This document shows, in pieces, positions 2,775 through 57,416 of a DNA stretch of 64,000 nucleotides. The stretch is from NCBI GenBank assembly GCA_023818695.1, contig JAMWCF010000001.1, forward strand, positions 3,538 to 67,537, written 5' to 3'. This DNA comes from Candidatus Omnitrophota bacterium. Lineage in GTDB: Bacteria > Omnitrophota > Gorgyraeia > 1-14-0-20-64-10. A model generated the notes under the pieces. That model did no database searches and was not told the origin of the DNA. It worked only from the letters and a program-made list of their open reading frames with translations. Position 1 is the first letter of the stretch; each line of letters begins with the position of its first letter. A program made the position numbers and the translations under genes.

Positions 2775-2778
2775 TCCC

Positions 2779-13883: not shown

Positions 13884-13886
13884 GAT

Positions 13887-14675
13887 ATGGCCGCCGCCGT
13901 GAAGGTTGCCGTTTTGAAGGGGCCCGGGACGAACTGCGATCAGGAGACTGCCTTCGCCTTTGAGCAGGCCGGGGCGCGGCCCGATTTTGTCTGGATCGAG
14001 CAGTTGAAAGAGAACCCGGCGGTTCTCTCCGGCTACCAGATCCTGGCTATCCCGGGGGGGTTCACCTACGGCGACGACCTGGGGGCGGGCCGCCTGATGG
14101 CGAATGAATTGACCGGCCGGCTGAAAGATGCGCTGGTTGACTTCCTAAAGCAGCAGAAACTGGTGATCGGGATCTGCAACGGGTTCCAAGTGCTCGTCAA
14201 AGCCGGGATCCTGCCGGGCGGCGCCGTGGGGTCGCCGCAGGAGGCGACGCTCACCTTCAATGATTCCGGGAAGTTTGAGGACAGGTGGGTTTATCTGCGC
14301 CAGGAGTTCAACGTCTGCGTCTGGACGCAGGGGATGGAGGAGCTGCTGGAGCTGCCGGTTGCGCACGGAGAAGGGAAGTTCGTCGTGAAAGACCAGACCG
14401 TTCTGGAGCAGCTGCTCGGTTACGGGCAGATCGCTTTCCATTACTGTGATCCGCAGGGCAATGAAGCGGGCTATCCCTGGAACCCCAACGGCTCGGTGGG
14501 GGCGATCGCCGGCATCTGCGACCCCTCCGGCAGGATTTTCGGGCTCATGCCTCATCCGGAACGGCACATGTTCGCTTTGCAGCATCCCCGATGGCAGCGG
14601 GAGGGACTGGCCGGTCCGGGACAGGGTCTGCGGATCTTCAGGAACGGCGTCGAATGGGTTCAGAAACGAGGATAA
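13887..14675 (+). CDS. purQ: Phosphoribosylformylglycinamidine synthase glutaminase subunit PurQ
   Basis: Class-I glutamine amidotransferase with catalytic Cys in GICNGFQ; sits between purL and purF. Confidence 0.9.
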   Translation: MAAAVKVAVLKGPGTNCDQETAFAFEQAGARPDFVWIEQLKENPAVLSGYQILAIPGGFTYGDDLGAGRLMANELTGRLKDALVDFLKQQKLVIGICNGFQVLVKAGILPGGAVGSPQEATLTFNDSGKFEDRWVYLRQEFNVCVWTQGMEELLELPVAHGEGKFVVKDQTVLEQLLGYGQIAFHYCDPQGNEAGYPWNPNGSVGAIAGICDPSGRIFGLMPHPERHMFALQHPRWQREGLAGPGQGLRIFRNGVEWVQKRG

Positions 14676-14678
14676 GCC

Positions 14679-18402: not shown

Positions 18403-18424
18403 TGCGGAAAAAGAAAGGAGTCAT

Positions 18425-18946
18425 TTGATGGCCAGGAAAGAACAGAAGCCGGTTGTGGGAATTCTCATGGGGTCCGATTCGGACCTTTCTACCATGCAGG
18501 AGGCGCGGTCCGTTCTGCAGGAAGCGGGTGTTCCGTGCGAAATCAGGGTTCTCTCGGCTCACAGGGCCCCCGAAGACACCGCTTCCTACGCTAAATCCGC
18601 GGCCGGCCGCGGAATCAAGGTGATCATCGCCGGCGCCGGAGGGGCCGCCCATTTGGCGGGAGTGCTGGCTTCCCATACCACCTTGCCCGTGATCGGCGTT
18701 CCGCTGGACGCCACCCTGTTCAAGGGGGTGGATTCTTATCTAAGCACTCTCCAGATGCCGCCGGGGATTCCCGTGGCGACCGTTTCCATCGGCAAGTGGG
18801 GCGCCCGCAACGCCGGCATCCTGGCCATGGAAATCTTAGCTCTCGGCGATAAGAAGCTGTCGGTCTTCCTGAAAGAGTTTAAGTCGAAACTCCGGCAGGG
18901 TGTTCTGGAAAAGGACAGAAAGCTGCAGGAGGCCTGCTGCGGTTGA
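18425..18946 (+). CDS. purE: N5-carboxyaminoimidazole ribonucleotide mutase PurE
   Basis: VGILMGSDSDL...VIIAGAGGAAHL PurE signature. Confidence 0.9.
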   Translation: MMARKEQKPVVGILMGSDSDLSTMQEARSVLQEAGVPCEIRVLSAHRAPEDTASYAKSAAGRGIKVIIAGAGGAAHLAGVLASHTTLPVIGVPLDATLFKGVDSYLSTLQMPPGIPVATVSIGKWGARNAGILAMEILALGDKKLSVFLKEFKSKLRQGVLEKDRKLQEACCG

Positions 18947-19572
18947 GGACGAAAATCATCAAGGTTGACGCGAACAACCCGGATCCGAAAGTGATCCGGG
19001 AAGCGGCCGATACCCTGCGCCGGGGCGGACTGGTCGCTTTTCCGACGGAGACGGTCTACGGGCTGGGGGCCAGTCTGCAGGACCCGCAGGCGATCCAGGA
19101 GCTGTATCGGGTCAAACAGCGGCCCTTCGAGAAGAAGGTTACCGTTCACATCTGGGATCTTCGGCAGGTGGAAGAGCAGGGGTGCCGAATGAATGAGATG
19201 GCCGCGGAACTGGCCGGCCGGTTTTGGCCGGGGCCGTTGACGGTGGTGTTGAAGCGCCGGGACGGCTCCACCCTGGGGTTCCGGATGCCGGACCACCCGG
19301 TGGCGTTGGCTTTGCTGAAAGAGGCCGACGTGCCGGTGGTAGCCCCCTCCGCGAACCTCTCCGGCTCCCCGGCCCCCCGAAGCGCGCCGGAGGTCCTCCG
19401 GGACCTGTCGGACGAGATCGACCTCCTGTTGGACGCCGGGCCGGCCCCCGTGGGGATCGAGTCAACCGTCCTGGACCTTTCGGGGCCGGTGCCTGTTTTG
19501 TTAAGAGCCGGCGCTTTGTCCTCCGACGTCAGCCGGTATCTTGAGAGGATTGGGGCGAGATCCCCCGGATGA
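18943..19572 (+). CDS. tsaC: L-threonylcarbamoyladenylate synthase (YrdC/Sua5/YwlC family)
   Basis: LVAFPTETVYGLGA YrdC-domain signature; overlaps the purE stop. Confidence 0.85.
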   Translation: MRTKIIKVDANNPDPKVIREAADTLRRGGLVAFPTETVYGLGASLQDPQAIQELYRVKQRPFEKKVTVHIWDLRQVEEQGCRMNEMAAELAGRFWPGPLTVVLKRRDGSTLGFRMPDHPVALALLKEADVPVVAPSANLSGSPAPRSAPEVLRDLSDEIDLLLDAGPAPVGIESTVLDLSGPVPVLLRAGALSSDVSRYLERIGARSPG

Positions 19573-20078
19573 AGAAAATCCTTTTTGTATGCACCGGCAA
19601 CAGCTGCCGTTCGGTGATGGCCGAGGGGCTCCTGAAGGATTACTTGAGCAAGAAAGGCAGAACGGATGTCCACGTTCTTTCCGCCGGTGTCAGCGCTTTC
19701 GGGGGGGCCGGTCCGACCCCCGAGACGGTGGAGGTGATGAGGGCGGAGCATATCGATGTTTCCAACCACATCAGCCAGCCGGTCACGCCGCAGCTGGTCA
19801 AAAACGCCGATATCGTTTTCTGCATGGAGCAGTTCCAGAGGGACATCCTGCTGACCCAGATCCCGGAGTCGGCAGGGAAGGTCCACCTGCTCAAGACCTT
19901 CCTGAACAAGCAGAGATTGGCCGATCCGAACATCGCCGACCCGATCGGAAGACCCAAGGAAGTTTACGAATCCTGTCTGATGACGATCAAGGAGGCGGTG
20001 GACCGGGTCGGCCGCTGGATCGTCGGTGAGTCCGGGACCCCGCAGCGGGGGGATGAGAAATGGGAAACGGAAGGGTGA
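19569..20078 (+). CDS. Low-molecular-weight protein tyrosine/arginine phosphatase (YwlE-like)
   Basis: P-loop FVCTGNSCRSVMAE (CX5R) at the N-terminus. Confidence 0.8.
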   Translation: MKKILFVCTGNSCRSVMAEGLLKDYLSKKGRTDVHVLSAGVSAFGGAGPTPETVEVMRAEHIDVSNHISQPVTPQLVKNADIVFCMEQFQRDILLTQIPESAGKVHLLKTFLNKQRLADPNIADPIGRPKEVYESCLMTIKEAVDRVGRWIVGESGTPQRGDEKWETEG

Positions 20079-31213: not shown

Positions 31214-31284
31214 TGCCCTGTCGTCCAATGGTAGGACTCCAGATTTTGGGTCTGGTTATCCTGGTTCGAGTCCAGGCGGGGCAA
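31214..31284 (+). tRNA. tRNA-Gln (anticodon UUG)
   Basis: Manual cloverleaf: acceptor TGCCCTG/CGGGGCA, D-arm GTCC-AATGGTA-GGAC, anticodon arm CCAGA-TTTTGGG-TCTGG (anticodon TTG), T-arm CCTGG-TTCGAGT-CCAGG; no encoded CCA. Confidence 0.7.
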
Positions 31285-42208: not shown

Positions 42209-43303
42209 ATGGTGCTCAAAAAGGGCAGAAAAGCAGGCGCGACGAGGGCCGTTTCAGCCCGGCGTTTGAAGGAGTTGGCAAGGCTGGTTTCCGGCGAGGT
42301 TGTCGGCGACGGCAACACCCTGATCACCGGGATCTGTGGGATCAAAGAAGCCCGTGCCGGAGACATCACCTTCATTGCCAACTCCAAGTACCAGCATCTG
42401 CTGCAAACGACGCAGGCCTCGGCGGTCATCACCTCCCGCGATGTGCAGACCGCCCCGAAGCCGATCATCCGGACCGACAATCCGTCCCTGGCTTTTTCAA
42501 AGCTTGTTTCTCACTTCGTTCCCTCGGTCCAGAAGCATCCTTCCGGGGTCAGCCCGAGGGCTTTCATCGGCAAGGGGGTCCGTGTGGGCAAGGGGGCGGC
42601 GGTTGGCCCGTTTGCCGTCGTGGAAGAAGGGGCCAGCATTGGGGACAGGACGGTTGTGTACGCCGGCGCCTACATCGGAAGGGACGCCTCTGTCGGCAAC
42701 GACTGCCTGATTTATCCCCACGTCACCATCCGTGAGAGGGTGGAGATAGGCCACCGGGTCATCGTCCATTCCGGTAGCGTCATCGGCTCCGACGGGTTCG
42801 GGTTCGCCACGGTGCAGGGGGTCCACCATAAAATCCCGCAGATCGGCACAGTCATCGTGGAGGACGATGTGGAGATCGGAGCCAACGTGACCATCGACCG
42901 GGCCCGCTTCGGCAAGACCCTCATCGGCAGGGGGACAAAGATTGACAACCTGGTCCAGATTGCCCACAACGTGATCGTGGGACCCAACAGCATCCTGGTT
43001 TCCCAGTCGGGCATTTCCGGGTCGACCGTTCTGGGCAGCAACGTTGTCTTGGCCGGACAGGCCGGTTTGGTGGGCCATATCACCATCGGCGACAACGTGA
43101 TGGTGGGAGGGCAGTCCGGTGTCACGAAATCGGTTCCTCCTAACACCCACGTGTGGGGGATTCCCGCCAAGCCTTTGGCGAAGGCCAAGCGGATCAACGC
43201 GGTGGTGCAGCGCTTACCCGAACTTCATAAGACGGTTGAAATGTTGGAGCAGCGGATAGAAGAACTGGAAAGGGAACGTGGAAGAAAGTCAGTCCCCCCC
43301 TAA
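42209..43303 (+). CDS. lpxD: UDP-3-O-acylglucosamine N-acyltransferase LpxD
   Basis: N-terminal LpxD domain ([20 protein letters not shown]) followed by left-handed beta-helix repeats. Confidence 0.88.
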
Positions 43304-44627
43304 ACAGCAGACCATCAAGCGTCCGGTCCGGATCGAGGGGGTGGGCCTTCATACCGGGTGTTCGGTCAGGGCCGAGTTCAGGCCGGCTCCGCCGGATTCG
43401 GGGATCCTCTTCCAGAGGACCGATCTGGCCGGAACAGGGCCGATCCGGGCTTCCGTGTCCGCGATCCTGGACGCGAGTCGGCGTCTGCGCCGCACATCCA
43501 TCGGGAACTCCGCCGTGGAGGTCCATACAATCGAGCACCTGATGGCCAGCTGCGTCGGCCTCGGGATCGACAACCTGCTGGTGGAACTCAATAACGAGGA
43601 AGTCCCAGGACTGGACGGTTCCGCCTATCCGTTCCTGGAGATCTTCAAGCAGGCGGGCCTCCAGGAGCAGAACGCGGCCAAGAAGATGATCCAGATCCGG
43701 GAGCCGGTCTGGGTGGAGGATGAGGCGGCCGTTGTGGCGGTTTTCCCCAGTGAGACGTTCCGCGTTTCGTATACCTTGAGCTACCCCGTTCCCGGCCTGA
43801 CGGCCCAGTTCTTCTCGGCCAGCGTCACGCCGCAGCTTTTTGAAACCGACCTAGCTCCCTCCAGAACCTTTTGCCTGGCCCAGGAGGTGGAGGCATTGAG
43901 GAAGATTGGTCTTGGCAAGGGGGCCAATTATGAAAATACCGTTGTGGTCGACAACACCGGCCGGGTCGTCAACAACCACCTGCGGTATCCGGATGAATTC
44001 GTGCGTCATAAGGTGATTGATCTGATCGGCGACATGTATCTTCTGGGCAGGCCCCTGCAGGGACATGTGCTGGCTTTCCGGTCGGGCCATGCCTTGAACT
44101 TGAAGCTGATCCATAAGATCCAGCAGACGCTGGATCGGGGTCGGGAGAGCGGCATCAAGGCCCAGTACATCGAGCCGGAGGCCTCCTCGCTTGACATCCT
44201 TGCGATCGAGAGAATTCTGCCTCACCGCTACCCCTTCCTGCTGGTGGACAAGGTGACGGAGATTGTTCCGGACAAACGGGCCTCCGGCGTCAAGAATGTC
44301 ACCATCAACGAGCAGTTTTTCACAGGCCATTTCCCGAAGCGTCCTGTCATGCCAGGCGTTCTCATCATCGAGGCGCTGGCGCAGCTTTCCGGCCTGCTCC
44401 TCCTGAATAAACCGGAGAATCTCGGCAAGTACGCCTATTTCATTGCGATGGACAATGTTCGGTTCCGGCGGACCGTCTTGCCGGGAGATACCCTTCATCT
44501 GGAGACGGAGGTCCTCAAGCTCCGGACGAAAACCGGACAGATGAGGACCCGGGCCCTCGTCGATGGAAAGGTCGCCGCCGAGGCGGATCTGATGTTTGCC
44601 CTTTTAGAGGGGGATGAGAAGCTGTAG
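43278..44627 (+). CDS. lpxC: Bifunctional UDP-3-O-acyl-GlcNAc deacetylase / 3-hydroxyacyl-ACP dehydratase (LpxC-FabZ fusion)
   Basis: GTG start; N-terminal LpxC ([16 protein letters not shown]...HALN) fused to C-terminal FabZ hot-dog domain ([13 protein letters not shown]...FTGHFP). Confidence 0.88.
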
Positions 44628-45446: not shown

Positions 45447-47150
45447 ATGAATCTCCGAATCGCTCTTGCGCAGATCAACGTGACGGTCGGCGACTTCCCC
45501 GGCAATGAGGCGAAGATAACGGAATCCTTTGCCGAGGCCCGGAGGAAAGGAGCCGATCTGGTTGTCTTTCCGGAGCTGGCTGTCACCGGCTATCCGCCCG
45601 AAGACCTCCTTTTCAAAAAGGCGTTCGTTCGGGCCGGTCTCCGGGCCGCAGACCGGCTGGTGAAGCGGTGCGACAAGGGCGTCGGTTTCATCGGTTTCGT
45701 TGATGAGGACGCGGGCGGCCGGATCTACAACGCGGCGGCAGTCTGTTTCAAAGGGACATGGGTCGGCCGGCACCGGAAGATGGAGCTGCCCAATTACGGG
45801 GTTTTCGATGAAAAGAGATATTTCACGCCGGGGTCGGCCCCTTTCCTGGCGGATTGCGTTGTCGACCCGAAACATGCCGTCCGGATCGGTGTTTCCGTCT
45901 GCGAAGACATCTGGGTGGACGGGGGGCCGACCCGCATTCAAGCGCAAAAAAGGTGCCGCATTCTGGTCAACCTGTCCGCCTCTCCCTACCATACCGGCAA
46001 GCGGCTGTCGAGAGAGCGGATGCTGATCCGCAGAGCGCGGGAGTGCACATGCTGGATTGTATACCTGAATCTCGTCGGGGGACAGGACGAGCTGGTTTTT
46101 GACGGCGGGTCGATGGTGGTCAACCCGTCAGGGAAGGTTGTCTTCCGCGCCCCCCAATTTGAGGAAGGGGTTTTCCTGACCGAGATTTCAGTTTCGCCGA
46201 CGGCGGTCCCACCTTCCCGGGAGATCCCGCAGTTGAAGCTTGGCCGGCGGCGCGGCGCCGGCCGCGCGGTGTTGAATCGCTCCGCCAAAGTCTTGGAGCC
46301 GGATGAGGAGATCTTCAAGGCGCTGGTCCTGGGGTTGAAGGATTACGTCCATAAGAATGGTTTTTCCCATGTCGTCGTGGGTTTGAGCGGCGGCATCGAT
46401 TCGGCCGTGACGGCTGCCATTGCCGTGGCCGCCCTGGGGAACCACTCGGTGACAGGGGTCTCCATGCCGTCCCGGTACTCCTCGGCGGAAACGAAGCAGG
46501 ACGCCCATGCTGTGGCCGCGTCGCTGGGGATCCAGTTCCTGGAGATCCCCATCGAAGGGATGTTGCAGGCCTCCCTGCGGAGTCTGGAGCCGGTCTTCAT
46601 GGGGCTTGAACCGAACGTCACGGAGGAGAACATCCAGGCGCGCCTGCGGGGGATGCTCCTGATGGCGCTGTCCAACAAATTCGGCTGGCTTGTACTGGCC
46701 ACAGGGAATAAATCGGAGATCTCCACCGGCTACTGCACCCTTTACGGGGACATGGTGGGCGGTTTCGCCGTCATCAAGGATGTTCCGAAGACCTGGGTTT
46801 ACCGGGTCGGCCGTTTCGCCAACAGGCATTTCGGCCGAGCCGTCATCCCGGAGTCGACGTTCAAAAGAGTCCCCACGGCCGAACTGAAGCCCGGCCAGAA
46901 AGATCAGGATATTCTGCCGCCGTACAGCCGTCTGGATTCGGTGATCCGCGCTTACGTGGAGGAGAACAAGCCGATCCAGGAAATCCGGCGGACATCGGGG
47001 TTGTCGAAGAAGGCCCTGGAGTCGGTGATTCAGATGATCGATCGGTCTGAGTACAAGCGTCGGCAAGCCCCTCTGGGGATCAAGATCACCCCGAGGGCTT
47101 ACGGCCGGGATAGAAGGATGCCTTTGACCAGTCAATTCAGGGAGTTCTGA
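45447..47150 (+). CDS. nadE: Glutamine-dependent NAD+ synthetase
   Basis: N-terminal CN-hydrolase domain plus C-terminal NAD synthetase domain with SGGIDS PP-loop. Confidence 0.9.
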   Translation: MNLRIALAQINVTVGDFPGNEAKITESFAEARRKGADLVVFPELAVTGYPPEDLLFKKAFVRAGLRAADRLVKRCDKGVGFIGFVDEDAGGRIYNAAAVCFKGTWVGRHRKMELPNYGVFDEKRYFTPGSAPFLADCVVDPKHAVRIGVSVCEDIWVDGGPTRIQAQKRCRILVNLSASPYHTGKRLSRERMLIRRARECTCWIVYLNLVGGQDELVFDGGSMVVNPSGKVVFRAPQFEEGVFLTEISVSPTAVPPSREIPQLKLGRRRGAGRAVLNRSAKVLEPDEEIFKALVLGLKDYVHKNGFSHVVVGLSGGIDSAVTAAIAVAALGNHSVTGVSMPSRYSSAETKQDAHAVAASLGIQFLEIPIEGMLQASLRSLEPVFMGLEPNVTEENIQARLRGMLLMALSNKFGWLVLATGNKSEISTGYCTLYGDMVGGFAVIKDVPKTWVYRVGRFANRHFGRAVIPESTFKRVPTAELKPGQKDQDILPPYSRLDSVIRAYVEENKPIQEIRRTSGLSKKALESVIQMIDRSEYKRRQAPLGIKITPRAYGRDRRMPLTSQFREF

Positions 47151-47827
47151 TGGAGTCGCTGCTTTTGATCGAATCGAACGGATCCTCCTTAAAGCAGGTG
47201 AAGTCCCAGTTCGTTCGCTCCGGGTTCCGTGTCGTTGTCTGCGATGCGGCCGGCCTGGAGCGTTTGGACGCGGGTAAGGAGAGGTTCCTTCTGATCGTGG
47301 CGGATGGCACCGATTCCTCCCGCCTGGCGGGAACCGTCGCGCAGGTCCGGTCCAAGCCCTTCCTGAAGGAGATTGGCCTGGTTCTACTGATCAAAGAATC
47401 ACAAATGAAGGAGCTGGGGCAGCTGACAGGGGTGGAGGATTTCCTGATCCTTCCGTGCGACCCGTCCATGGTGGAGTCGAGGGTTCGGTTTGTTCTCAAG
47501 CGGATGAACCGCTCCGCACCGGGTGAAGAGGGAATCCAGGTCGGCAAGCTGAAACTGGACATCGACCGTTACGAGGTGACACTGGACGGGGAGCCGCTGG
47601 AGCTGACCTACAAGGAATTCGAGCTCTTGAAATTTCTGGCGACCCACCCCGGCAAGGTTTTCAGCAGAGACCAGCTCTTAAACCAGGTTTGGGGCTATGA
47701 TTTCATCGGAGGGACCCGGACCGTGGATGTTCACATCCGCCGATTGAGGGCCAAGCTCGGTCCGAAATACGCTTCCTTAATAGATACCGTCCGGAACGTT
47801 GGCTACAAGTTCCTCGAAAATCTTTAA
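47150..47827 (+). CDS. Orphan OmpR-family response regulator with degenerate receiver domain (atypical, probably phosphorylation-independent)
   Basis: C-terminal winged helix LTYKEFELLKFLATHPGKVFSRDQLLNQVWGYDFIGGTRTVDVHIRRLRAKL; receiver lacks the N-terminal acidic DD pair (LLLIESNGSS) and the conserved Lys (DFLILPCDP); start overlaps the nadE stop; no histidine kinase nearby. Confidence 0.8.
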   Translation: MESLLLIESNGSSLKQVKSQFVRSGFRVVVCDAAGLERLDAGKERFLLIVADGTDSSRLAGTVAQVRSKPFLKEIGLVLLIKESQMKELGQLTGVEDFLILPCDPSMVESRVRFVLKRMNRSAPGEEGIQVGKLKLDIDRYEVTLDGEPLELTYKEFELLKFLATHPGKVFSRDQLLNQVWGYDFIGGTRTVDVHIRRLRAKLGPKYASLIDTVRNVGYKFLENL

Positions 47828-47829: not shown

Positions 47830-47893
47830 GTTTACACGGATTTAACATTTCTGATATTTTCGCGTAACCTTCCTCCTTAAACTGCACCAAAAC
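47830..47893 (+). promoter_or_regulatory. Array of helically phased (T/A)AAC direct repeats upstream of the porin-amt-glnK operon; contains GGATTTAACAT shared with the glnA upstream region
   Basis: gTTTACacggaTTTAACat...cGTAACc...TAAAC...AAAAC with hexamer ends at 47835/47846/47868/47882/47893 (mostly 11-bp multiples); adjacent TGCACCAaaacGGTTCA resembles an NtrC dyad. Confidence 0.35.
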
Positions 47894-47959: not shown

Positions 47960-49228
47960 ATGATCTTTGTGGTTCGAAGGTTCGTTTTTATGTCTTTGGC
48001 GACGGCGGTTGGTTTTTTCGCCTTTCCCGTGAGCCCGTCTGTGGCTGACGAAACAGCCGATCTCATGCAGGAGATCAAAGAGTTGAAGTCCCGCCTGGCA
48101 TCTCTGGAGAGCCGGTTGGCCAAGCAGGAGGCCAAGCCGTCTTCCGCTGCGGCCCTGAGCGCCGTGTCCGATTCGGACGTTCCGTCCTGGGTCAGGAAGG
48201 TTGATATCAGTGGTTTCGTGGATGTGTCCTATGTTTACAACTTCGATGAGCCAAAAACCACTGGTGCCAACGGTCTGCGTGTTTTTGACACCGAGCCAAA
48301 CGGTTTCCAGCCCAATGCCTTCGAGTTGGTCGTCCAGAAGCCGGTTTCCACCGACTCGCCAGTCGGCTTCCGGGCCGATCTGGATGTCGGCGAGGATGCC
48401 GAGATCGTGGGGTCGGTGACAACCGGTTTGGGGTCGACAACCGATGAAATCGATCTTCAGCAGGCCTATGTGGAGGCGCTGGTGCCTGTCGGCAGCGGGT
48501 TGAACGTGAAGGCGGGGAAATTTGTGACGCTCCACGGGGCGGAGGTCATCGAATCGAAGGACAACTGGAATTTTTCGAGGTCCTATCTCTTCGGCTACGC
48601 TATTCCCTTTACGCACACGGGTGTCCGGTTGAGCTACCCGCTTACGTCGTGGTTGACCACGACGGCCGGCGTGAGCAATGGCTGGGATGTAGTGGATGAC
48701 AACAACACCGGCAAGACGCTTGAATGGATGCTGGCGGCAACGCCGACCGCGAAAACCTCCCTCTGCGCTACTGTCATGTATGGCCCGGAGCAGACCAATG
48801 ATAACCATGACGACCGGTTTCTGCTGGATGTCGTTCTCGGCTACAACCCCTGTGAGAGATTGTCATTGAAGCTGAACTATGACTATGGGCAGGAGCATGA
48901 CGCGACAATTGAAGACCTGGAGGACGCCAGCTGGCACGGGGTGGCCGGCTACGCCCGGTACCAATTCAACGACTGGTACGCCCTGGCCCTGCGCAGCGAG
49001 TATTTCGTCGATTACGACGGCATCCGGACCGGGGTTCGCGCCGCCAACGGGGTGGGAGACGTTGGTTTGTGGGAATTAACCGTCACAAACGAATTCAAGC
49101 TGTATAAAGATCTCATCACCCGGCTGGAGTACCGTCACGATCACGCCACCAACTCGGTTTTCGCTTCCGGCGGCGGTACCGACAACACGCAAGATACGAT
49201 CAGTCTGGAAGCGATCTATCCGTTCTGA
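47960..49228 (+). CDS. Outer-membrane porin with N-terminal coiled-coil, upstream of amt
   Basis: AAGGAGGG RBS; signal peptide MIFVVRRFVFMSLATAVGFFAFPVSPSVA; coiled-coil; beta-rich body ending ...LEAIYPF (C-terminal Phe). Confidence 0.55.
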   Translation: MIFVVRRFVFMSLATAVGFFAFPVSPSVADETADLMQEIKELKSRLASLESRLAKQEAKPSSAAALSAVSDSDVPSWVRKVDISGFVDVSYVYNFDEPKTTGANGLRVFDTEPNGFQPNAFELVVQKPVSTDSPVGFRADLDVGEDAEIVGSVTTGLGSTTDEIDLQQAYVEALVPVGSGLNVKAGKFVTLHGAEVIESKDNWNFSRSYLFGYAIPFTHTGVRLSYPLTSWLTTTAGVSNGWDVVDDNNTGKTLEWMLAATPTAKTSLCATVMYGPEQTNDNHDDRFLLDVVLGYNPCERLSLKLNYDYGQEHDATIEDLEDASWHGVAGYARYQFNDWYALALRSEYFVDYDGIRTGVRAANGVGDVGLWELTVTNEFKLYKDLITRLEYRHDHATNSVFASGGGTDNTQDTISLEAIYPF

Positions 49229-49290: not shown

Positions 49291-50664
49291 ATGGAATGGA
49301 AAGTAGCGGCAGACACCCTCTGGGTGTTGATAACGGCGATGCTGGTCTTCTGGATGAATGCCGGCTTCGCGACGGTGGAAGCCGGTTTTCAGGCGCAGAA
49401 GAACTGCGTCAATATCTTGTCCAAGAACTTCGTTGTTTTTGCTATTGCGTCGATCGCTTATTGGTGGGTTGGTTTCGGCCTGCAGTTCGGGGATGGCAAC
49501 GGCTGGGTCGGGATGCAGGGGTTGTTTTCTCTTCGCGGAGCCGATAATTCGCCGGCGACCGGGGATGCTTATAAGGGTGTCTACAGCTCCTTGAGCTGGA
49601 CCGGCGTTCCTCTGCTGGCGAAATTCTTTTTCCAGCTGGTTTTCTGCGGGACGGCGGCGACCATCGTTTCAGGAGCGGTCGGAGGCAGGATCAAGTATTT
49701 TTCGTTCCTTGTTTTCTCCTTCTTCCTCTGCGCGCTGGTTTATCCGATCGTCGGACACTGGATCTGGGGCGGAGGATGGCTGGCGAAGGCCGGTTTCTGG
49801 GATTTCGCCGGCTCAACGGTTGTTCACTCGGTCGGCGGCTGGGGTGCCCTCGCGGGGGCTCTTCTGCTAGGGCCCCGCTTCGGCAAATACAGCCCCACCG
49901 GTTCCATCATGCCGACGCCGGGCCATAATCTGTCGCTGGCCACGATAGGAACCTTCATCCTGTGGCTTGGCTGGTTCGGGTTCAATCCTGGATCAACCAT
50001 GGCGGCGGATCCGAGCGCCATCGCCCGGATCTGCGTGACGACCAACTCCGCCGCGATTGCCGGGATCCTGGGAGCCACTTTGACCTCCTGGATCACGCTG
50101 GGCAAGCCGGACCTGGGCATGACCTTGAACGGCTGTCTGGCCGGGCTGGTCGGCATCACGGCGCCGTGCGCCTTTGTCAGCGTGGAGAGTTCGCTGATCA
50201 TTGGCTTCATCGCGGGTGTTCTGGTCGTGCTGGCTGTCCCGATCTTTGACCGGCTGCGGATCGACGACCCGGTCGGCGCCACCTCGGTCCACCTCGTCAA
50301 TGGGATCTGGGGGACCCTGGCGGTCGGTCTTTTCGCGCAGGATTCGATCATGCCGAATACCACCGGAAACGGCCTGTTTTTCGGGGGAGGCACCAAGCTC
50401 CTGGCCGCCCAGGCGACCGGTGTTTTCGCCGTTGGGGTGTTCACGTTCGTGACCTGCGCGATCGTGTGGGCTCTGATCAAGGTGACGATGGGAATCCGAG
50501 TCGCTCTCCATGAGGAGATCTCCGGTCTGGATGTCGGCGAGCACGGCAACTCGGCCTATCCGGAGTTCGTGATCCGCAAGCCCTCTTATTCCTATGCGAG
50601 CATCGTGGCCCGTCCCGCGGAATACAGCGAGACGCCGGTTTCTGTGAATGGAGGCAAGAAATGA
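49291..50664 (+). CDS. amt: Ammonium transporter (Amt family)
   Basis: 11-TM Amt/MEP protein with signature stretches such as GAVGGRIKYFSF and FGFNPGS. Confidence 0.92.
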   Translation: MEWKVAADTLWVLITAMLVFWMNAGFATVEAGFQAQKNCVNILSKNFVVFAIASIAYWWVGFGLQFGDGNGWVGMQGLFSLRGADNSPATGDAYKGVYSSLSWTGVPLLAKFFFQLVFCGTAATIVSGAVGGRIKYFSFLVFSFFLCALVYPIVGHWIWGGGWLAKAGFWDFAGSTVVHSVGGWGALAGALLLGPRFGKYSPTGSIMPTPGHNLSLATIGTFILWLGWFGFNPGSTMAADPSAIARICVTTNSAAIAGILGATLTSWITLGKPDLGMTLNGCLAGLVGITAPCAFVSVESSLIIGFIAGVLVVLAVPIFDRLRIDDPVGATSVHLVNGIWGTLAVGLFAQDSIMPNTTGNGLFFGGGTKLLAAQATGVFAVGVFTFVTCAIVWALIKVTMGIRVALHEEISGLDVGEHGNSAYPEFVIRKPSYSYASIVARPAEYSETPVSVNGGKK

Positions 50665-50999
50665 AGAAGATTGAAGCGATCATCCGCCCGGAGAAGGTCG
50701 ATGAGGTGCGCCGGGCTCTGGAAAAAGTCGGATTTCCCGGTCTTCACATCGGCGAAGTGGAGGGGCACGGGAAGCAGAAGGGAGTCGTCCAGCAGTGGCG
50801 CGGCGAGCAGTACCGGGTGGAACTGCTTTCCAAGGTGAAGCTGGAGATTGTGGCCAACGACAAGGACGCCTCGAAGATCGTCCAGGCCATCCAGGACGCC
50901 GCCAAAACCGGCGGCGTGGGGGACGGGAAGATTTTCATCTCGCCGGTCGAAGAGGTGATCCGGATCCGGACCGGGGAGAGGGGGGATTCCGCCCTTTAA
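50661..50999 (+). CDS. glnK: Nitrogen regulatory protein P-II (GlnK type, linked to amt)
   Basis: MKKIEAIIRPEKVDEVRRAL...T-loop RGEQYRVELL with the conserved Tyr; overlaps the amt stop. Confidence 0.9.
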   Translation: MKKIEAIIRPEKVDEVRRALEKVGFPGLHIGEVEGHGKQKGVVQQWRGEQYRVELLSKVKLEIVANDKDASKIVQAIQDAAKTGGVGDGKIFISPVEEVIRIRTGERGDSAL

Positions 51000-51024: not shown

Positions 51025-51063
51025 CTTAACCGGGATTTAACATCCCCGTAATATTGTTGTAAC
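51025..51063 (+). promoter_or_regulatory. Four consecutive 11-bp-phased direct repeats (CTTAAC / TTTAAC / CGTAAT / TGTAAC) upstream of glnA
   Basis: Hexamer ends at 51030, 51041, 51052 and 51063; includes GGATTTAACAT, identical to the 11-mer upstream of the porin-amt operon. Confidence 0.4.
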
Positions 51064-51253
51064 GGCCGGAAATTAAGCTAGAATAGTCAATATTCCGGGC
51101 TGGGGAACCCCACCCCTCCTGTTTCTGCACGGTTGGACACAGTTCTTCCAAAGGGCCGTTTTTCCCTTGTAGAGAAATCGGGCCGAGTGTCTTGATTCGA
51201 ATCAGTTTTTGAGGTGGATTTTGAAAAAGCGAAAGAAGGAGAAACGAAAAGCC

Positions 51254-52795
51254 ATGGCACGAGGGACCACAGCAGCTAAAACACGGGGCAAGGCGTCATT
51301 GAATGGGCGGGGGAGCCAGTCCGAAAAGACGTTCCCCATCGCGGCCGTTGCCAACGAGCCGCCGAAAGCGGATGAAGCGGCTGTCCGCCGGTTATGGAAG
51401 ATTATTAAGGAGAATAACATCCAGGTCGTGGACCTGAAGTTCAACGACCTGCCCGGGCTGTGGCAGCATTTTTCCATCCCGGTCTCCGAGTTGAGCGAGA
51501 ACCCCAGAGAGGGGATCTGGGTCGACGGGATTGGGTTCGACGGGTCGTCGATCCGCGGTTTCCAGAAGATCCAGGAATCGGACATGAACCTGTATGCCGA
51601 CCCGAGCACGGCGATCCTGGACCCGGTTTGCGAGGCGCCGACCTTGAGCATGATCTGCGACATCTATGATCCGTTGACGAAGAAGCCCTACACCCGGGAC
51701 CCCCGCTACATCGCCAGGAAGGCCGAAGCGTACCTGAAGAAAACCGGCATCGCCGACATCAGCTACTGGGGTCCGGAACCGGAATTCTTCATCTTCGATG
51801 ACATCCGGTTCGATTCGACGGAAAACTCCAGCTACTACTTCGTCGATTCCATCGAAGGAGAGTGGAACTCCGGCCGGGACGAGAAGCCAAACCTCGGCTA
51901 CAAGCCCCGCTTCAAGGAAGGGTACTTCCCGGTGCCGCCTCACGATGTCTTTCAGGACATCCGCAGCGAGATCATGAAGAAGGCCCGGGAGGCCGGCGTC
52001 CCCGTGGAGAAGCATCACCATGAGGTGGCCACGGCCGGTCAGGCGGAGATCGACATGCGCTACGGCACCCTCACCCAGATGGCGGACTGGCTGATGACGC
52101 TCAAATACGTCGTCAAGAACGTCGCCCGCAAGCACGGCAAGGTGGCCACCTACATGCCCAAGCCGCTCTTCGGCGACAACGGATCCGGCATGCACACCCA
52201 CCAGAGTCTCGCGAAAGAGGGGACCAACCTGTTCTACGACAAGAACGGCTACGCCCTGATCAGCCAGACCTGCAAGTGGTACATCGGCGGGCTGCTTAAG
52301 CATGCCCCGGCAATCCTGGCCTTCGCGGCTCCCGGCACCAACTCTTACAAGCGGTTGGTCCCCGGCTACGAGGCGCCTGTGAACTTGGCCTACTCGGCCC
52401 GGAACCGGTCGGCGATCTGCCGCATCCCGGTTTACACGCCGCACCCGAAAAGCAAGAGGGTGGAGTTCCGCGCCCCCGACCCCTCCTGCAACCCGTACAT
52501 CACGTTCGCGGCGCTGCTTATGGCGGGGCTGGATGGCATCCAGAACCGGATCGATCCGGGACAGCCGGTGGATGAGAACATCTACGAGATGCCGGCGGAC
52601 AAGGCGCCCAAGCAGGTGCCCGGTTCGCTGGAGGAGGCGCTTGACGCCCTCGAGAGGGACCACGCGTTCCTGCTCAAGGGAGACGTCTTCACCAAGGACG
52701 TCATCGAGGTGTGGCTGGAGTACAAGCGGCAGGAGATTGACAAAGTCCGGCTCCGACCGCATCCGTACGAGTTCTACCTGTACTTCGACGCCTAA
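51254..52795 (+). CDS. glnA: Glutamine synthetase type I-beta (E. coli-like, with adenylylation-region Tyr) carrying a ~40-aa basic N-terminal extension
   Basis: Near-collinear with E. coli GlnA (…[16 protein letters not shown]…[14 protein letters not shown]…NIYEMPAD…); first in-frame ATG is 51254, ~40 codons upstream of the position aligning with E. coli Met1. Confidence 0.88.
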
Positions 52796-52879: not shown

Positions 52880-54217
52880 ATGCCCGCTATTGAGCTGAAA
52901 GACAAAGAATACGTCCTGAAATCGGCCCGCGACCTCGGGGTCAAGTTCATCCGGTTGTGGTTCACCGACATCCTCGGGTTCCTGAAGAACGTGGCGATCA
53001 CCATCGAGGAACTGGAGGAGGCCCTGGAGGAAGGGGTCGGTTTCGACGGTTCCTCCATCGAGGGGTTCACCCGGTCCGAGGAGTCCGACATGGTGGCTTT
53101 GCCGGATCCGAACACCTTCGCGGTTTTGCCCTGGAGGCCGAAAGCCAACGCCGTTGCCCGAATGTTCTGCGACATCGTGCGCCCTGGCGGGGAACCGTTT
53201 GAAGGGGATCCCCGCTACGTTTTGAAGCAGAATCTGAAGAAGGCGGCCGAGTTGGGCTACACCTTTTACGTCGGGCCGGAGCTGGAGCATTTCTATTTCA
53301 AGTCGGCCGAGGAGCCGATCCCCTTGGATGCCGGCGGCTATTTCGACCTGACCCCGCTGGATCTGGCTTCCAACCTGCGGCGTGAAACGATCCTGGCGCT
53401 GGAGGAGCTGGGGATCGGCGTCGAGTTCAGCCACCATGAGGTGGCCCCCTCCCAGCATGAGATCGATTTCCGGTACGCCGACGCCCTGACGATGGCGGAC
53501 AACGTGATGACCTACCGGCTCGTCACCAAGGAGATCGCCCTGGAGCACGGGGTCTACGCCACTTTCATGCCGAAGCCGATGGCCGGGCAGAACGGTTCCG
53601 GCATGCATGTGAACATCTCCCTCTTTAAAGGGGAGAGGAACGCCTTCTTCGATCCGAACGATCCGGCCCATCTGTCCGGAGTGGCTAAGAGCTTTCTTGC
53701 CGGGATCCTCAAGCATGTCAGGGAGTTCACCGTGGTCACCAACCAGTGGGTGAATTCCTACAAGCGGCTGACCCCCGGTTATGAGGCGCCGGCTTATGTC
53801 ACCTGGGCTTTAACGAACCGGGCCGATCTGGTGCGTGTCCCCAGGGCTAAACCAGGTAAAGAAGAGGCCTGCCGAATTGAACTGCGGTCTCCTGACCCGG
53901 CTTGCAACCCGTACCTGGCTTTCAGCGCCATCTTGGCGGCCGGACTGGATGGTATCCGGAAGAAAGAATCTCTTCCGCCTGAAGCGCAAACTAACGTGGC
54001 CTCCCTCTCCCCCGCGGAGAGGTCCCAAAAGGGGATCCAGGCCCTTCCCAGAGATCTGGGAGAGGCGATTGAAGCGGCCAGCGGCTCGGCGCTTCTGAAA
54101 TCGGCGTTGGGCGACCACATCTACAGTTCCTTCCTGCGCAACAAGCAGATGGAATGGGAAAAATACTGCTCTGCCGTCACCGATTTTGACCTGAAGACCT
54201 ACTTACCGTTGCTGTAA
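52880..54217 (+). CDS. glnA: Glutamine synthetase type I-alpha (B. subtilis-like, 445 aa)
   Basis: MPAIELKDKEYVLKSARDLGVKFIRLWFTDILG... short GSI-alpha architecture lacking the 25-aa insertion. Confidence 0.9.
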   Translation: MPAIELKDKEYVLKSARDLGVKFIRLWFTDILGFLKNVAITIEELEEALEEGVGFDGSSIEGFTRSEESDMVALPDPNTFAVLPWRPKANAVARMFCDIVRPGGEPFEGDPRYVLKQNLKKAAELGYTFYVGPELEHFYFKSAEEPIPLDAGGYFDLTPLDLASNLRRETILALEELGIGVEFSHHEVAPSQHEIDFRYADALTMADNVMTYRLVTKEIALEHGVYATFMPKPMAGQNGSGMHVNISLFKGERNAFFDPNDPAHLSGVAKSFLAGILKHVREFTVVTNQWVNSYKRLTPGYEAPAYVTWALTNRADLVRVPRAKPGKEEACRIELRSPDPACNPYLAFSAILAAGLDGIRKKESLPPEAQTNVASLSPAERSQKGIQALPRDLGEAIEAASGSALLKSALGDHIYSSFLRNKQMEWEKYCSAVTDFDLKTYLPLL

Positions 54218-54500
54218 TAAATAGTAAAAGCTTATCGAACGCATATTCTCCTTCTCCCGATTTCGATGGTCTTTGGTAATGCACCCCTGTCGGCAAGCCG
54301 GTTCAAACGCAGATCGATCCGGTGCAGGAGGCGTCCGCCATCCTGGCCAAAAATCTCAATAATGTATCTCCTGCGAATGCAGCGCCTTCCATAGTAGTTA
54401 ATAGGAATTAAATCTAATATAAGGCCTTGCCAAATCAGGTTTAGTTAAGGTAAACTTGACCTCACCATTGAGGAAACACCATTTCCTGCCGGTTCTTACG

Positions 54501-57416
54501 ATGAGATCTATAACAGTTTTCAAGAGAAGCATTGCCTTTTTCGCGGCGATCTCGCTGGGATTGCCAGGGACCTCCTTTGCCTTGAGGCCGGTCAGCCCTG
54601 TGGAGTCAGGCGTCCAGGATCAGCTGGTCCTCTCCCTGTCTGCTGGCCTGGAGGAAGAGAAGGATTTGGGCCTGCGCAGGCGGGTCGATGTCGGCGGACA
54701 GGTGGTGGTCTGGAGCTTCAACCAGGAACAGCCCCCTCAGATCGTCCGGATTCGGTTGGCGGAAGTCAAAGGAATGAAGAGAGGTGCCATCGAGTTCCAG
54801 GGGCCTCCGACAGTCTTGATCTTCCGTCAAAAGCTGTGGGACCAGATTACGCGCGAGGTCACAGAGAGGGGCGGTTTCAATTCCGGCGGCGGCAGGGGCC
54901 ATCTGCAAACATTCGTCAAGGAGGTGGAGGAGGGGAAATGGCTCAAGTTGAATTTCAAGGCGGAAAAGGATTATCGGAGCAAGGGCACTTACCCGCCCGG
55001 TGAACGGGGGGAGGGGGTCATCCTGTACGATCTGACCTCCAACCGGGAGATTGCGCGGGTCTTCCTCCGGGCCGTCGCGTCGAACAGTTCAGCCGAACTT
55101 CGGCTCGTCGCCCCGAAGGACGTTAAGCTGGATGATGAAGCGACTTATCTCTCCAAACTGGCCGACCTGGCGGCGCGGCCGATCCCGTACGATGAGGCGA
55201 TCCTTATCGATGACAGCGCTCTCGTCCCCGTCCGCCTGTTCGCCGATACCTCCGGCGGCGCGCCGAACAGCTTTGTGCCCGTCCCGTCCCAAGGGGTTTT
55301 CATCCCCTCTACTTACCTGGAAGAGTGGAGGGGGCGGGGTTTCTTCATCCTTAACCGCCAGGGGAATGGGCAGCGTTTCCTGCACGTCGTGCTTGGTAAT
55401 AAAGCCCATTTCCCGAACGTCAACACGGTTTTCATGCAGGCGGGAGCCGATCCTGTCGCGGCTCGGTTGAGTTTGTCCAGGTCAAGCCGGACCGAAGACG
55501 GATTCACTGTGGAGGTGACGCCGCAGGGAGTGACAATCCGGCCCGGATCAGGACAGCAGATACTGGTTGAAAGGTCATTCATTCCCTTTGAGATGAACCT
55601 GCGGTCCCTTTTCGAAGATGCCGGGGTCGCTCTGGAAATGCAGCGATGGAGCACGTTGAGCAATCTTCTGACCCGCGTCTCCCGCCTGCAAAAGCCGGAA
55701 CGTGCCCGGCAGACGACCTTCGTCCGAAGGCAGTTGGATACGCTGGAGATCATGCGGATGCAGATGCTGTTGAGCCGCCGCTTGCCTTCCGTCTGGATCG
55801 TCGGCAATCCCTTGTCCAGATCGGCTGAAAACGATTACTGGGCCGCGCTGGCGGCCGGATCTCGGCTTTTGAACCAGCAGCCGCCGCCTCACCAGGAAAC
55901 GGTCCGGATGGTCAGAACGATGATCGCGCAGGCGGTTTTGACATTAAGCGCGGCCGGCTCCCTGGCGCAGCGCACGCGGATTGATCAGATCATGACCAAC
56001 CCGGACGTTCCCCGGGGCCATGTCTACGCCCTGTTCCGGGAAAGATGGCTTGCCCGCGTCCTCCGGGAGCAGGAAAGGGGTCGGCTTGAGCTGCCGAATG
56101 AGTTTTATACCCGCGCCCTGGCCTATGCCCTCATGCAGGTCATGAGCCCCGCGGATCAGTTTTTGAGCCCAGCCGACCGCCTGGACGCGCCGGATGCCCT
56201 GCTGACCTTTTTGCAGGGAGGGGTACCGGCCGATCACCTCGAATCGGCGCGCCAGCGCCACATGGTTCGGAGAATCGTGACAAAGGAGTTGTGGAATGTG
56301 GAGCAGAGCAGGCCGGGACAGATGCCAGAGGATATGATGGAAGAGGTGCTGATGCCTTACGACATCACGATTTTGGAGGCAGCCGCCATCGCCGCACGCG
56401 TTTTGTCTCGTGTGGCGGAGGAGATGGGACACGCTGGAGACGCGGCGAAATTCCGGCAGCTCTCCGAGGAGATTCAGGAACAGCTGCGGGGGCGGGTTTC
56501 CGGCAGGATGCCGCGCCGGCTGGATATGGTGAACGTGGTCCGGGGACCGGTCCAGATTCTTGCGGACAACCTGAGAGAAGAGCAGGAGGTCATCGAAACG
56601 CTGCACGGCCACATGAAGCGTTTACTGGAGGAAGTCACGGAGGAACCGCGCCTCGATCCGGGCTGGGTCCGGTTCTACAACGAGGCGACAGGCAGCAACT
56701 ACTGGATTGAGCTGGGGCCGCCGGATGAATGGCAGGAGCGTTTCGGCCAGGAGGGGGATCTCATGGAGTCGGCCCTCTGGGCGATTTCCGCCGGTGCGGC
56801 AGGCCGGTCCTTCCGGGTGCAGGTCCGGACTTACAGGGAGCGGCATCACAGCAGGTGGGTTCAGGTCCTTGTGCCGGAGGTGACCTATGGTCCCCCCCTG
56901 CCTGATCAGCCCGAGCGCCTGGTGATGCCTTCCGCCGGTCTGGAGGGGACTCTTCCTTTTCGAGCGGTGGACGCGGAGGAATTCGCCCGGAACCTGCCGT
57001 CCCGCTACAGGGATTCCATCCCCGGCGTTTTCAGCAGGGTCTGGGTCGTTCCATTGCCAGCCCGCGTGAATGTTTATTCCCAGGAACCGCTTCTACAGGG
57101 CCTGGAGCGGGATTTCATCGGCAAGCTGCCGGCGGATTTGGCGGCGGCCGTTCGGCTCGTACGGGTCCCTCTGGCGCCGACGGAGTCGTACGAAAAACCC
57201 GGCGTGATTGTAGAAGACGCGGGTCTGGATCTCTCGGTTGATAATCCCCTGAATCTTCCGGTTCTGAAGCTGTGGCTGGCCGACCTGGCCCGCATCAATC
57301 CGGCAGCCGTCATTATGCTGGCCCTGGGTGGCTATCAGGATCCGAATGTGCAGCTTCTGGGGTTGATGACCTACCAGGACGCGCAAGGGCAGACCTTCCT
57401 CGCCATCTTCGCGTAA
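54501..57416 (+). CDS. Large secreted hypothetical protein (~970 aa), no recognisable domain
   Basis: Signal peptide MRSITVFKRSIAFFAAISLGLPGTSFA; beta-rich N-terminal third, helix-rich Arg/Leu/Glu-rich remainder; the track ORF begins at TTG 54456. Confidence 0.55.
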   Translation: MRSITVFKRSIAFFAAISLGLPGTSFALRPVSPVESGVQDQLVLSLSAGLEEEKDLGLRRRVDVGGQVVVWSFNQEQPPQIVRIRLAEVKGMKRGAIEFQGPPTVLIFRQKLWDQITREVTERGGFNSGGGRGHLQTFVKEVEEGKWLKLNFKAEKDYRSKGTYPPGERGEGVILYDLTSNREIARVFLRAVASNSSAELRLVAPKDVKLDDEATYLSKLADLAARPIPYDEAILIDDSALVPVRLFADTSGGAPNSFVPVPSQGVFIPSTYLEEWRGRGFFILNRQGNGQRFLHVVLGNKAHFPNVNTVFMQAGADPVAARLSLSRSSRTEDGFTVEVTPQGVTIRPGSGQQILVERSFIPFEMNLRSLFEDAGVALEMQRWSTLSNLLTRVSRLQKPERARQTTFVRRQLDTLEIMRMQMLLSRRLPSVWIVGNPLSRSAENDYWAALAAGSRLLNQQPPPHQETVRMVRTMIAQAVLTLSAAGSLAQRTRIDQIMTNPDVPRGHVYALFRERWLARVLREQERGRLELPNEFYTRALAYALMQVMSPADQFLSPADRLDAPDALLTFLQGGVPADHLESARQRHMVRRIVTKELWNVEQSRPGQMPEDMMEEVLMPYDITILEAAAIAARVLSRVAEEMGHAGDAAKFRQLSEEIQEQLRGRVSGRMPRRLDMVNVVRGPVQILADNLREEQEVIETLHGHMKRLLEEVTEEPRLDPGWVRFYNEATGSNYWIELGPPDEWQERFGQEGDLMESALWAISAGAAGRSFRVQVRTYRERHHSRWVQVLVPEVTYGPPLPDQPERLVMPSAGLEGTLPFRAVDAEEFARNLPSRYRDSIPGVFSRVWVVPLPARVNVYSQEPLLQGLERDFIGKLPADLAAAVRLVRVPLAPTESYEKPGVIVEDAGLDLSVDNPLNLPVLKLWLADLARINPAAVIMLALGGYQDPNVQLLGLMTYQDAQGQTFLAIFA

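Follow-up and report, generated by a model that had tools for sequence, protein, structure and literature searches.

How is the uptake and assimilation of ammonium controlled in the Omnitrophota? To our knowledge, nothing is known of nitrogen regulation in this lineage. The question is raised by a stretch of 64,000 nucleotides from a metagenome-assembled genome (MAG) of Candidatus Omnitrophota bacterium (contig JAMWCF010000001.1), hereafter called the window, in which the gene of an atypical OmpR-type regulator follows nadE, encoding a glutamine-dependent NAD+ synthetase, and is itself followed by genes for an outer-membrane porin, the ammonium transporter Amt, the PII protein GlnK and two glutamine synthetases (GlnA). 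The Omnitrophota are a candidate phylum without isolates (PMC10066038). An earlier note on this DNA had proposed that the protein is a GlnR-like nitrogen regulator. This proposal gained support, as the best matches in the Protein Data Bank (PDB) and in Foldseek searches are GlnR structures, and GlnR-box-like arrays precede both amt-glnK and glnA. We consider it likely that the regulator is a kinase-independent member of the GlnR family, which would bind as four protomers to these arrays and activate the porin-amt-glnK and glnA-glnA operons. Regulator, predicted operator and two target operons would then all be contained within 7 kb, a circuit deduced from sequence alone.

Domains of the regulator and their relatives

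The winged-helix DNA-binding domain (DBD), which the earlier note had called intact, is recovered by Pfam as Trans_reg_C (residues 147–221, E = 5e-29), the sole Pfam domain of the query protein. A phmmer search against all PDB sequences returned 8hig (153 bits, E = 7.6e-44), 8hih (151 bits) and, covering the DBD only, 8hml (135 bits); RegX3 (97 bits), MtrA (92 bits) and the DBDs of VicR, YycF and PhoB (about 80–84 bits) came next, which leaves GlnR a margin of about 55 bits. 8HIH represents Mycobacterium tuberculosis GlnR in a transcription activation complex (TAC) and 8HML the DBD of Saccharopolyspora erythraea GlnR on DNA (PMC10235972); 8HIG is annotated in the PDB as another co-crystal of the S. 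erythraea GlnR DBD with DNA. An AlphaFold2 model (66 homologs; predicted local distance difference test, pLDDT, 89.3) displays a regular (beta-alpha)5 receiver fold and then the winged helix. In Foldseek its best match was 8hih (E = 4.8e-17), and its DBD superposes on 8hml and 8hig with root-mean-square deviations of 1.2–1.5 Å at 64–70% identity, as opposed to 48% identity with the PhoB DBD. All 14 residues by which GlnR contacts DNA (T149, K151, R169, W177, T187, V190, H191, R193, R194, R196, T209, R211, N212, and Y215; PMC10235972) are kept in the query when the phmmer alignment is mapped onto S. erythraea numbering, and the sole change in the recognition helix relative to GlnR is V192 to I. 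The homology to GlnR is thus real. The earlier note had drawn a parallel to GlnR, HP1043, and ChxR, which for GlnR goes beyond analogy, whereas HP1043 and ChxR are mechanism analogues from other families.

Relatives of the query were sought in one genome per species across 185,579 species. Peptide patterns of the conserved DBD served as seeds, which biases the scan towards GlnR-like sequences; we judged kinship with GlnR by bit-score gaps. Omnitrophota MAGs came first with 41–65% identity (two of them labelled Planctomycetes), followed solely by Actinomycetota (Pseudonocardiaceae, Frankiales, and Mycobacteriales) with 43–46% identity over the full length. An identical protein, P0001, has been deposited for a MAG labelled 'Candidatus Omnitrophica bacterium'. 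More than 100 homologs share 45–69% identity and are nearly all annotated with Trans_reg_C alone; among 1.84 billion library representatives, the query matched 88,050 clusters at E ≤ 1e-3 and just 480 at E ≤ 1e-30. Compared domain by domain, the query shares 66–68% of its DBD with actinobacterial GlnR and 64–70% with a second Omnitrophota subgroup, the receiver values for the latter being 27–30%. Since these identities are similar to those with actinobacterial GlnR, the query is about equally far from both, and the three appear to be branches of a single family at roughly equal distances from one another.

The N-terminal domain gave no Pfam match to Response_reg, even when the first 128 residues were searched alone at E ≤ 10. 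Alignment by HMMER to Bacillus subtilis PhoP and RstA, and by MAFFT, placed E8-S9 at the position of the acidic pair; in the same alignments to PhoP and RstA the phospho-acceptor aspartate corresponds to D52 and is retained. L80/I81 occupy the canonical threonine position, and L101, within DFLILP, that of the canonical lysine. What had been read directly from the sequence, ESN instead of DD and DFLILPCDP instead of DYLxKP, proved correct by alignment to canonical receivers, and the loss of the threonine and the retention of D52 are to be added. Of the D-D-D-T-K set just the aspartate is left. Among 66 close homologs the lysine position never holds lysine (0/66) and the threonine position never serine or threonine (0/66), the first acidic position is glycine in 53, and residue 52 is aspartate in 52, glutamate in 13 and alanine in one. 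The complete set occurs in one of 114 full-length cluster representatives (at least 138 bits, among the best 150). Judged by these alignments, degeneration of the receiver runs through the whole regulator family, and the domain is incapable of normal aspartyl-phosphate chemistry. As this chemistry is lost, the regulator would work without a partner kinase; it probably forms a constitutive dimer via the alpha4-beta5-alpha5 face, on which D97, E109, R111, R113, and R118 vary little or not at all.

Assignment as a canonical response regulator was rejected on the active-site residues. A related proposal would be a conventional, phospho-dependent response regulator with its kinase encoded elsewhere in the genome, and D52 and the normal receiver fold are indeed kept, and the window covers only 64 kb of the genome. 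However, the family as a whole has lost lysine, threonine or serine and the acidic pair that binds Mg2+, D52 is replaced by glutamate in about 20% of the homologs, and none of the roughly 20 loci examined encodes an adjacent kinase. A regular-expression screen found no H-box in any selected open reading frame (ORF) of the window, and Pfam detected neither HisKA nor HATPase_c in the 20 window ORFs (most of at least 250 residues) that could not be identified by eye; the products recognised among these were a porin, TamB, FtsH, LpxB, TPR and ABC transporter proteins, and enzymes of purine and histidine metabolism. The remaining plus-strand genes were recognised by eye from their N-termini (pstA, pstB, phoU, clpX, glmU, prs, rplY, and pth), and the gene tables of eight related loci (L081–L088) list no kinase. 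The description of the regulator as an orphan without a histidine kinase in 64 kb was borne out by these searches, and we regard the phospho-dependent version as highly improbable.

It is the receiver that supplies most of what weighs against membership in the GlnR family. Its identity to actinobacterial GlnR receivers is only 23–33%, and the query scores 14.8–15 bits with the Pfam model GlnR_1st (PF21695), under the cutoff of 27. A profile search of the PDB with the N-terminal domain ranks the receivers of CheY, PleD, and PhoP before GlnR; searched as a single sequence, this domain matches PhoP and CheY receivers (E ~1e-4), and GlnR is not among the matches. Arg52 of GlnR is missing as well, the query having D52-G53-T54 and its relatives DAT, DVS, or DLE where GlnR has D-A-R. 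In the DBD, the recognition helix of PhoB is also similar, and helix identity alone does not fix specificity; the argument for GlnR therefore rests on the whole DBD. On the other side, GlnR_1st is the commonest weak match of this N-terminal domain, found in 27 of 33 relatives (best E = 8.5e-6) versus five of 33 for Response_reg, and hhalign of the N-terminal domains against actinobacterial GlnR receivers yields a probability of 95.8% at 18% identity. In GlnR, a charge network of Asp50, Arg52, and Thr9 stabilises the homodimer (Lin et al. 2014, reviewed in PMC10704036), and S9 of the query may be a stand-in for Thr9. The N-terminal domain is best described as a divergent receiver for whose specific kinship with the GlnR receiver the evidence is mixed. 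Taken together, the comparisons support a GlnR-family member outside the Actinobacteria that combines a divergent receiver with a new genomic coupling.

Four-site arrays and promoter geometry

Both arrays (Table 1) consist of four 5-mers with an exact 11-bp period, with the consensus GTAAC-n6-TTAAC-n6-GTnAT-n6-GTAAC. In the 64-kb window, both strands included, they alone reach a KTWAC score of at least 14, a value that no array attained in 30 shuffles. We also built a position weight matrix from 15 arrays, all from other loci (consensus GTAAC-nnnGAT-TTAAC-nTnnCn-GTnAT-nTnnnn-GTAAC). Because the training arrays had been picked by the ad hoc KTWAC score, the core pattern is shared by construction; the conserved flanking positions of the matrix are independent of that score. 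The matrix scores of the two arrays, given in Table 1, compare with 8.2 bits for the next independent position in the window and a maximum of 18.6 bits in 100 shuffles. By either method there are no further arrays in the window, including at nadE and the lpx, pur, and pst genes, and none precedes the regulator gene. The lack of an array at pstSCAB-phoU in the window argues against reading the repeats as Pho boxes.

Arrays occur at matching promoters in eight other Omnitrophota loci, on the coding strand before the porin-amt operon in L004, L006, L009, L010, L083, L084, L085, and L086/L087 and before glnA in L004, L084, L085, and L086. Loci without nitrogen genes (L001–L003, L005, L007, L008, L081, L082, and L088) have no arrays. 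One match of at least 14 bits was obtained from about 0.9 Mb of loci from actinobacteria and other lineages, GAAAC-n6-TTAAT-n6-GAAAC-n6-TTAAT, which lies before the L090 glnA and about 5 kb from another GlnR-like gene. The two repeat arrays of the earlier note are real and far beyond chance, with the correction that the first ends with its fourth site and 47869–47893 is better read as a -10 region. The extra half-sites that had been suspected at 47878–47893 (TAAAC and AAAAC) are 14 bp out of register and coincide with a conserved -10-like hexamer, and so were not counted as binding sites.

This hexamer is part of a recurrent geometry. At most homologous promoters a TAnnnT sequence begins 10–11 nt past site 4 (TAGACT, TAAGGT, TACGTT, TATCGT, TACGAT, TATCCT, TACCCT, TAAAAT, TACACT, or TATACT), and several glnA promoters have GAnnCT-type hexamers at that offset instead. 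So placed, the hexamer makes the array straddle the -35 region, an arrangement also seen in the structure of M. tuberculosis GlnR with RNA polymerase. If TAnnnT is the -10 element, site 1 would lie at about -60 to -56, site 3 over the -35 position, where no good hexamer is found, and site 4 at about -27 to -23, between -35 and -10. Of the two overlapping candidates at the window glnA, TAAGCT has the same offset from site 4 as at the other promoters, and TAGAAT pairs with TTGTAA at 51057–51062. The GlnR activation complex was assembled on a scaffold from -64 to +13 with a non-optimal -35 element. Unusually, the b2 site occupied by protomer I is located downstream of -35, and this protomer contacts both the beta flap and sigma region 4 (PMC10235972). 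In the mapped alignment, the beta-flap contacts of GlnR (Y160, H164, R167, V168, F169, and Q173) correspond in the query to F, H, K, V, F, and Q. The locus suggests that the activation geometry of GlnR, with a protomer downstream of -35, is conserved across phyla.

We propose that four protomers of the regulator assemble head-to-tail on the four 5-bp sites, 11 bp apart, and would, if the -10 assignment is right, span about -60 to -23 of the porin-amt-glnK and glnA-glnA promoters, the two candidate targets visible in the window; the word 'master' in the earlier note goes further than these two promoters allow. With site 3 over a poor -35 element, the regulator could recruit or stabilise RNA polymerase and thereby activate ammonium uptake and assimilation, as the M. 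tuberculosis activation complex does. What the sequences show directly is the homology, the degeneration of the receiver, and arrays that are significant, well placed and conserved; binding, oligomeric state, the sign of regulation and a nitrogen signal are what we infer here.

The sign deserves separate discussion, as the arrays overlap the inferred core promoter and such overlap could equally repress, which also counts against the proposal. The same protein on the same sites might cover the -35 and spacer region and, when nitrogen is in excess, keep RNA polymerase out, in the manner of AmtR or of GlnR at some actinobacterial promoters. Moreover, site 4 at the window glnA promoter is overlapped by TTGTAA-16-TAGAAT, a reasonable sigma-70 pair. 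Actinobacterial GlnR is reported to act both as activator and as repressor. However, with TAnnnT as the -10 element the -35 position falls on 'ATnTnn', a poor match typical of activator-dependent promoters, the GlnR beta-flap contact residues are kept or conservatively changed in the query, and the identical geometry activates in the GlnR-TAC structure and in transcription assays (PMC10235972). We therefore consider repression unlikely and retain activation by the GlnR-type regulator.

Between the predicted glnA promoter and the likely ATG lies a leader of about 170 nt (51085–51253). A riboswitch or other known RNA was considered for it and dropped, as Rfam at gathering thresholds found a single tRNA in the window (31214–31284) and neither a glutamine riboswitch nor any other known RNA in this leader.

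In the second Omnitrophota subgroup, a gene for a stand-alone OmpR-type winged-helix protein of about 100 residues, itself preceded by an array, is located between the GlnR-like gene and the porin gene (Table 1). The protein is without a receiver and has a divergent recognition helix (LRMVDEHxRHLKGLL), and its gene is absent from the window. It may belong to the regulon and act there as a co-regulator or anti-activator.

Gene neighbourhood and distribution

Pfam confirmed that the regulator gene is directly upstream of genes for a BBP2-type porin, Amt, PII and two glutamine synthetases, as the earlier note had stated, and translational coupling to nadE, likewise claimed there, fits the ORF junction, where the regulator ATG and the nadE TGA share one base (TGATG). 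The second glutamine synthetase gene is probably co-transcribed with the first. Overlap of nadE stop and regulator start (TGATG or ATGA) is frequent across related loci, nadE and the regulator gene are adjacent in 16 of 17 Omnitrophota-type loci examined, and the order rpsR-rplI-dnaB-bamA-skp-lpxD-lpxC/fabZ-(lpxA)-lpxI-nadE-regulator is conserved in both Omnitrophota subgroups. The regulator therefore appears to be made along with housekeeping genes and not from a regulated promoter of its own; its synthesis would proceed from the end of the operon bamA-skp-lpxD-lpxC/fabZ-lpxI-nadE by translational coupling to nadE.

Table 1. Positions of the regulator, its domains, neighbouring genes, promoter elements and related loci. 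Positions refer to the window unless a locus is named.
Feature	Position	Strand	Remarks
nadE, glutamine-dependent NAD+ synthetase	45447–47150	+	Pfam CN_hydrolase and NAD_synthase
GlnR-family atypical OmpR-type regulator	47150–47827	+	225 residues
Degenerate receiver domain, residues 1–122	47150–47515	+	D52 kept; acidic pair, Thr and Lys lost
Winged-helix DBD, residues 129–225	47534–47824	+	About 66–70% identical to actinobacterial GlnR
Array TTTAC-n6-TTAAC-n6-GATAT-n6-GTAAC	47831–47868	+	Before porin-amt-glnK; predicted site for four protomers; 44.6 bits
-10-like hexamer TAAACT	47878–47883	+	Starts 10 nt after site 4
BBP2-type outer-membrane porin	47960–49228	+	Pfam; likely ATG 47960 after AAGGAGG; listed ORF from TTG 47912
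Ammonium transporter Amt	49291–50664	+	Pfam
PII protein GlnK	50661–50999	+	Pfam
Array TTAAC-n6-TTAAC-n6-GTAAT-n6-GTAAC	51026–51063	+	Before glnA-glnA; predicted binding site; 43.7 bits
Overlapping -10 candidates at glnA	51074–51084	+	TAAGCT 51074–51079; TAGAAT 51079–51084
Glutamine synthetase 1 (glnA)	51254–52795	+	Pfam; likely ATG 51254; listed ORF from TTG 51209
Glutamine synthetase 2 (glnA)	52880–54217	+	Pfam; 85 bp after glutamine synthetase 1; without own array
Stand-alone winged-helix gene	L006 9880–10290; L009 7055–7414; L010 11583–11951
Array before each stand-alone winged-helix gene	L006 9627–9664; L009 7018–7055; L010 11568–11605		On the coding strand
GlnR-like/glnA loci	L089 782–2984; L090 6624–8675, 13635–15240		Array-like sequence at L089 536–573

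The block porin-amt-PII-glnA-glnA directly follows the regulator in the window and in L084, L085, and L086, and is separated from it by inserted genes in L004, L006, L009, L010, and L083. Two features of the neighbourhood are to be set against a role in nitrogen control: in L002, L003, L081, and L088 there are no nitrogen genes near the regulator, and its synteny is tighter with lpx-nadE than with the nitrogen cluster. The arrays could thus be genuine nitrogen elements bound by another OmpR-family protein, either a PhoP- or MtrA-like competitor or the DBD-only paralog, with the regulator itself serving the lpx/nadE operon. OmpR-family proteins generally bind direct repeats of 11-bp period, and group-B loci have an additional DBD-only winged-helix gene adjoining arrays. 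Yet in the window no array or strong matrix match is present in or upstream of the lpx-nadE genes and no second OmpR-type DBD is encoded, and the DBD-only paralog, absent there, has a different recognition helix. Furthermore, the 5-mer consensus matches the sites of GlnR, the closest homolog, and in two other lineages a GlnR-like gene is again found near glnA with an upstream array. Such a division of roles appears to us distinctly improbable, and we continue to regard the GlnR-type regulator as the predicted ligand of the arrays.

Several features of the surrounding genes may be recorded. The lpxC and fabZ genes are fused in a 449-codon ORF (43278–44627; LpxC and FabA-type dehydratase in homologous genes), a fusion kept in all related loci. 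An ORF of 986 codons at 54456–57416, with a signal-peptide-like N-terminus and no Pfam match, occupies the slot after the second glnA and before lpxB, where L084 (975 residues) and L085 (589 residues) also have an ORF without Pfam match. Another 986-codon ORF (10923–13883) is a purS-purL fusion that joins PurS and AIRS domains with the FGAR-AT linker; behind it come purQ (GATase_5) and, by N-terminal sequence only, a probable purF; these pur genes encode further glutamine-dependent enzymes in the window, none with an array. At 361–6117, a Porin_5 porin gene is followed by pstS-pstC-pstA-pstB-phoU, assigned, apart from the porin, by eye from N-termini. Neither phoB nor phoR is found near this pst operon, nor is a GlnR-type array; long minus-strand ORFs across the region have no Pfam match and look like antisense artefacts. 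In L083, about 9 kb of toxin-antitoxin and defence-like genes (10791–19811; NTP_transf_2 and HicB-like genes, AbiEii, S8 peptidases, and an FG-GAP/dockerin protein) are inserted between regulator and porin, and the four-site array remains with the porin despite the insert (19935–19972).

In the literature, nitrogen regulation by GlnR is presented as a matter of actinobacteria (PMC10235972, PMC10704036). The earlier note held that no such regulator has been described in the lineage of the window, and within the library searched we found no paper with both GlnR and Omnitroph*; a broader, multi-phylum search for OmpR-type GlnR outside the Actinobacteria likewise returned nothing relevant. What has to be revised is the exclusiveness. 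An Armatimonadota MAG encodes the GlnR-like protein P0125 (Pfam GlnR_1st and Trans_reg_C) directly after glnA, and on a metagenomic contig the GlnR-like P0129 is encoded directly downstream of glnA; in both L089 and L090, GlnR-box-like arrays are found upstream of glnA. With relatives in Armatimonadota and other uncultured lineages, the Omnitrophota are not the sole non-actinobacterial home of such proteins. We lean, with some reserve, towards the view that OmpR-type GlnR control of nitrogen metabolism is widespread and possibly ancient, and that its conserved four-protomer architecture extends to Omnitrophota, Armatimonadota and further uncultured groups; the spread could be due to horizontal transfer or to ancient descent.

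The regulator gene repeatedly stands right behind that of a glutamine-handling enzyme, nadE in the Omnitrophota and glnA in L089 and L090. One could speculate that the enzyme partner, NadE or glutamine synthetase, senses glutamine and modulates the regulator via the degenerate receiver, for which control of the unrelated Bacillus GlnR/TnrA by feedback-inhibited glutamine synthetase would be a parallel, although we think this improbable. For signalling through actinobacterial GlnR, Ser/Thr phosphorylation and acetylation have been proposed (PMC10235972). In practical terms, annotation of these proteins could be more precise than 'response regulator transcription factor', and the 38-bp matrix could help in predicting the nitrogen regulons of Omnitrophota MAGs. 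The result extends a well-studied system into an uncultivated phylum and introduces no new principle.

Comparison with known systems

The same targets, amt-glnK and glnA, are controlled in other bacteria by NtrBC with sigma-54, cyanobacterial NtcA, corynebacterial AmtR, and the MerR-type GlnR/TnrA of Bacillus, but these belong to unrelated protein families and recognise other DNA motifs. According to Pfam and identification of genes by eye, the nitrogen cluster in the window has no gene for any of these regulators beside it.

PhoB and PhoP are closer. TIGR02154 is the best NCBIfam model for the query (118.9 bits), the winged-helix fold is shared, the recognition helix is similar, and 11-bp-periodic direct repeats are common to both. 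However, the score is far from the TIGR02154 cutoff of 296.2 bits, DBD identity amounts to 48%, and the query receiver lacks the phosphorylation chemistry. Orthology to PhoB was rejected on the NCBIfam cutoff, the lower DBD identity, and the missing array at the pst operon. Other OmpR-type proteins resemble the query in their atypical, kinase-free receivers. Cyanobacterial NblR is the second-best NCBIfam model (NF045914), with a full-length alignment, but at 112.7 bits against a cutoff of 300; HP1043 of Helicobacter pylori (2hqr) is among the PDB matches, at a much lower score (E = 1.9e-10); and ChxR of Chlamydia also acts without a kinase. NblR, HP1043, and ChxR showed no specific similarity to the query in DBD or sites and are analogues in mechanism from other families.

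The closest counterpart is actinobacterial GlnR, as known from Streptomyces coelicolor, Amycolatopsis mediterranei, S. erythraea, and M. tuberculosis, which is the best match in both sequence and structure. Both GlnR and the query are orphans whose degenerate receivers have the aspartate and lack lysine and threonine. The likeness extends to the cis-element, which for GlnR typically comprises four 5-bp sites of types a and b around -35 and for the query is predicted to be four GTAAC-like sites of 5 bp, set 6 bp apart across -35, and to the predicted targets amt-glnK and glnA. There are, however, differences. The host of the query is an Omnitrophota MAG and not an actinobacterium; the proline after the lost lysine is kept in the query (LP), where GlnR has LLPTAGP; the C-terminal tail is missing; and the query sites read GTAAC/TTAAC/GTnAT/GTAAC instead of the alternating gTnAc/GaAAC of GlnR. 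Finally, the query gene is coupled to nadE at the end of a lipopolysaccharide and outer-membrane operon, and the first target gene at its locus encodes an outer-membrane porin.

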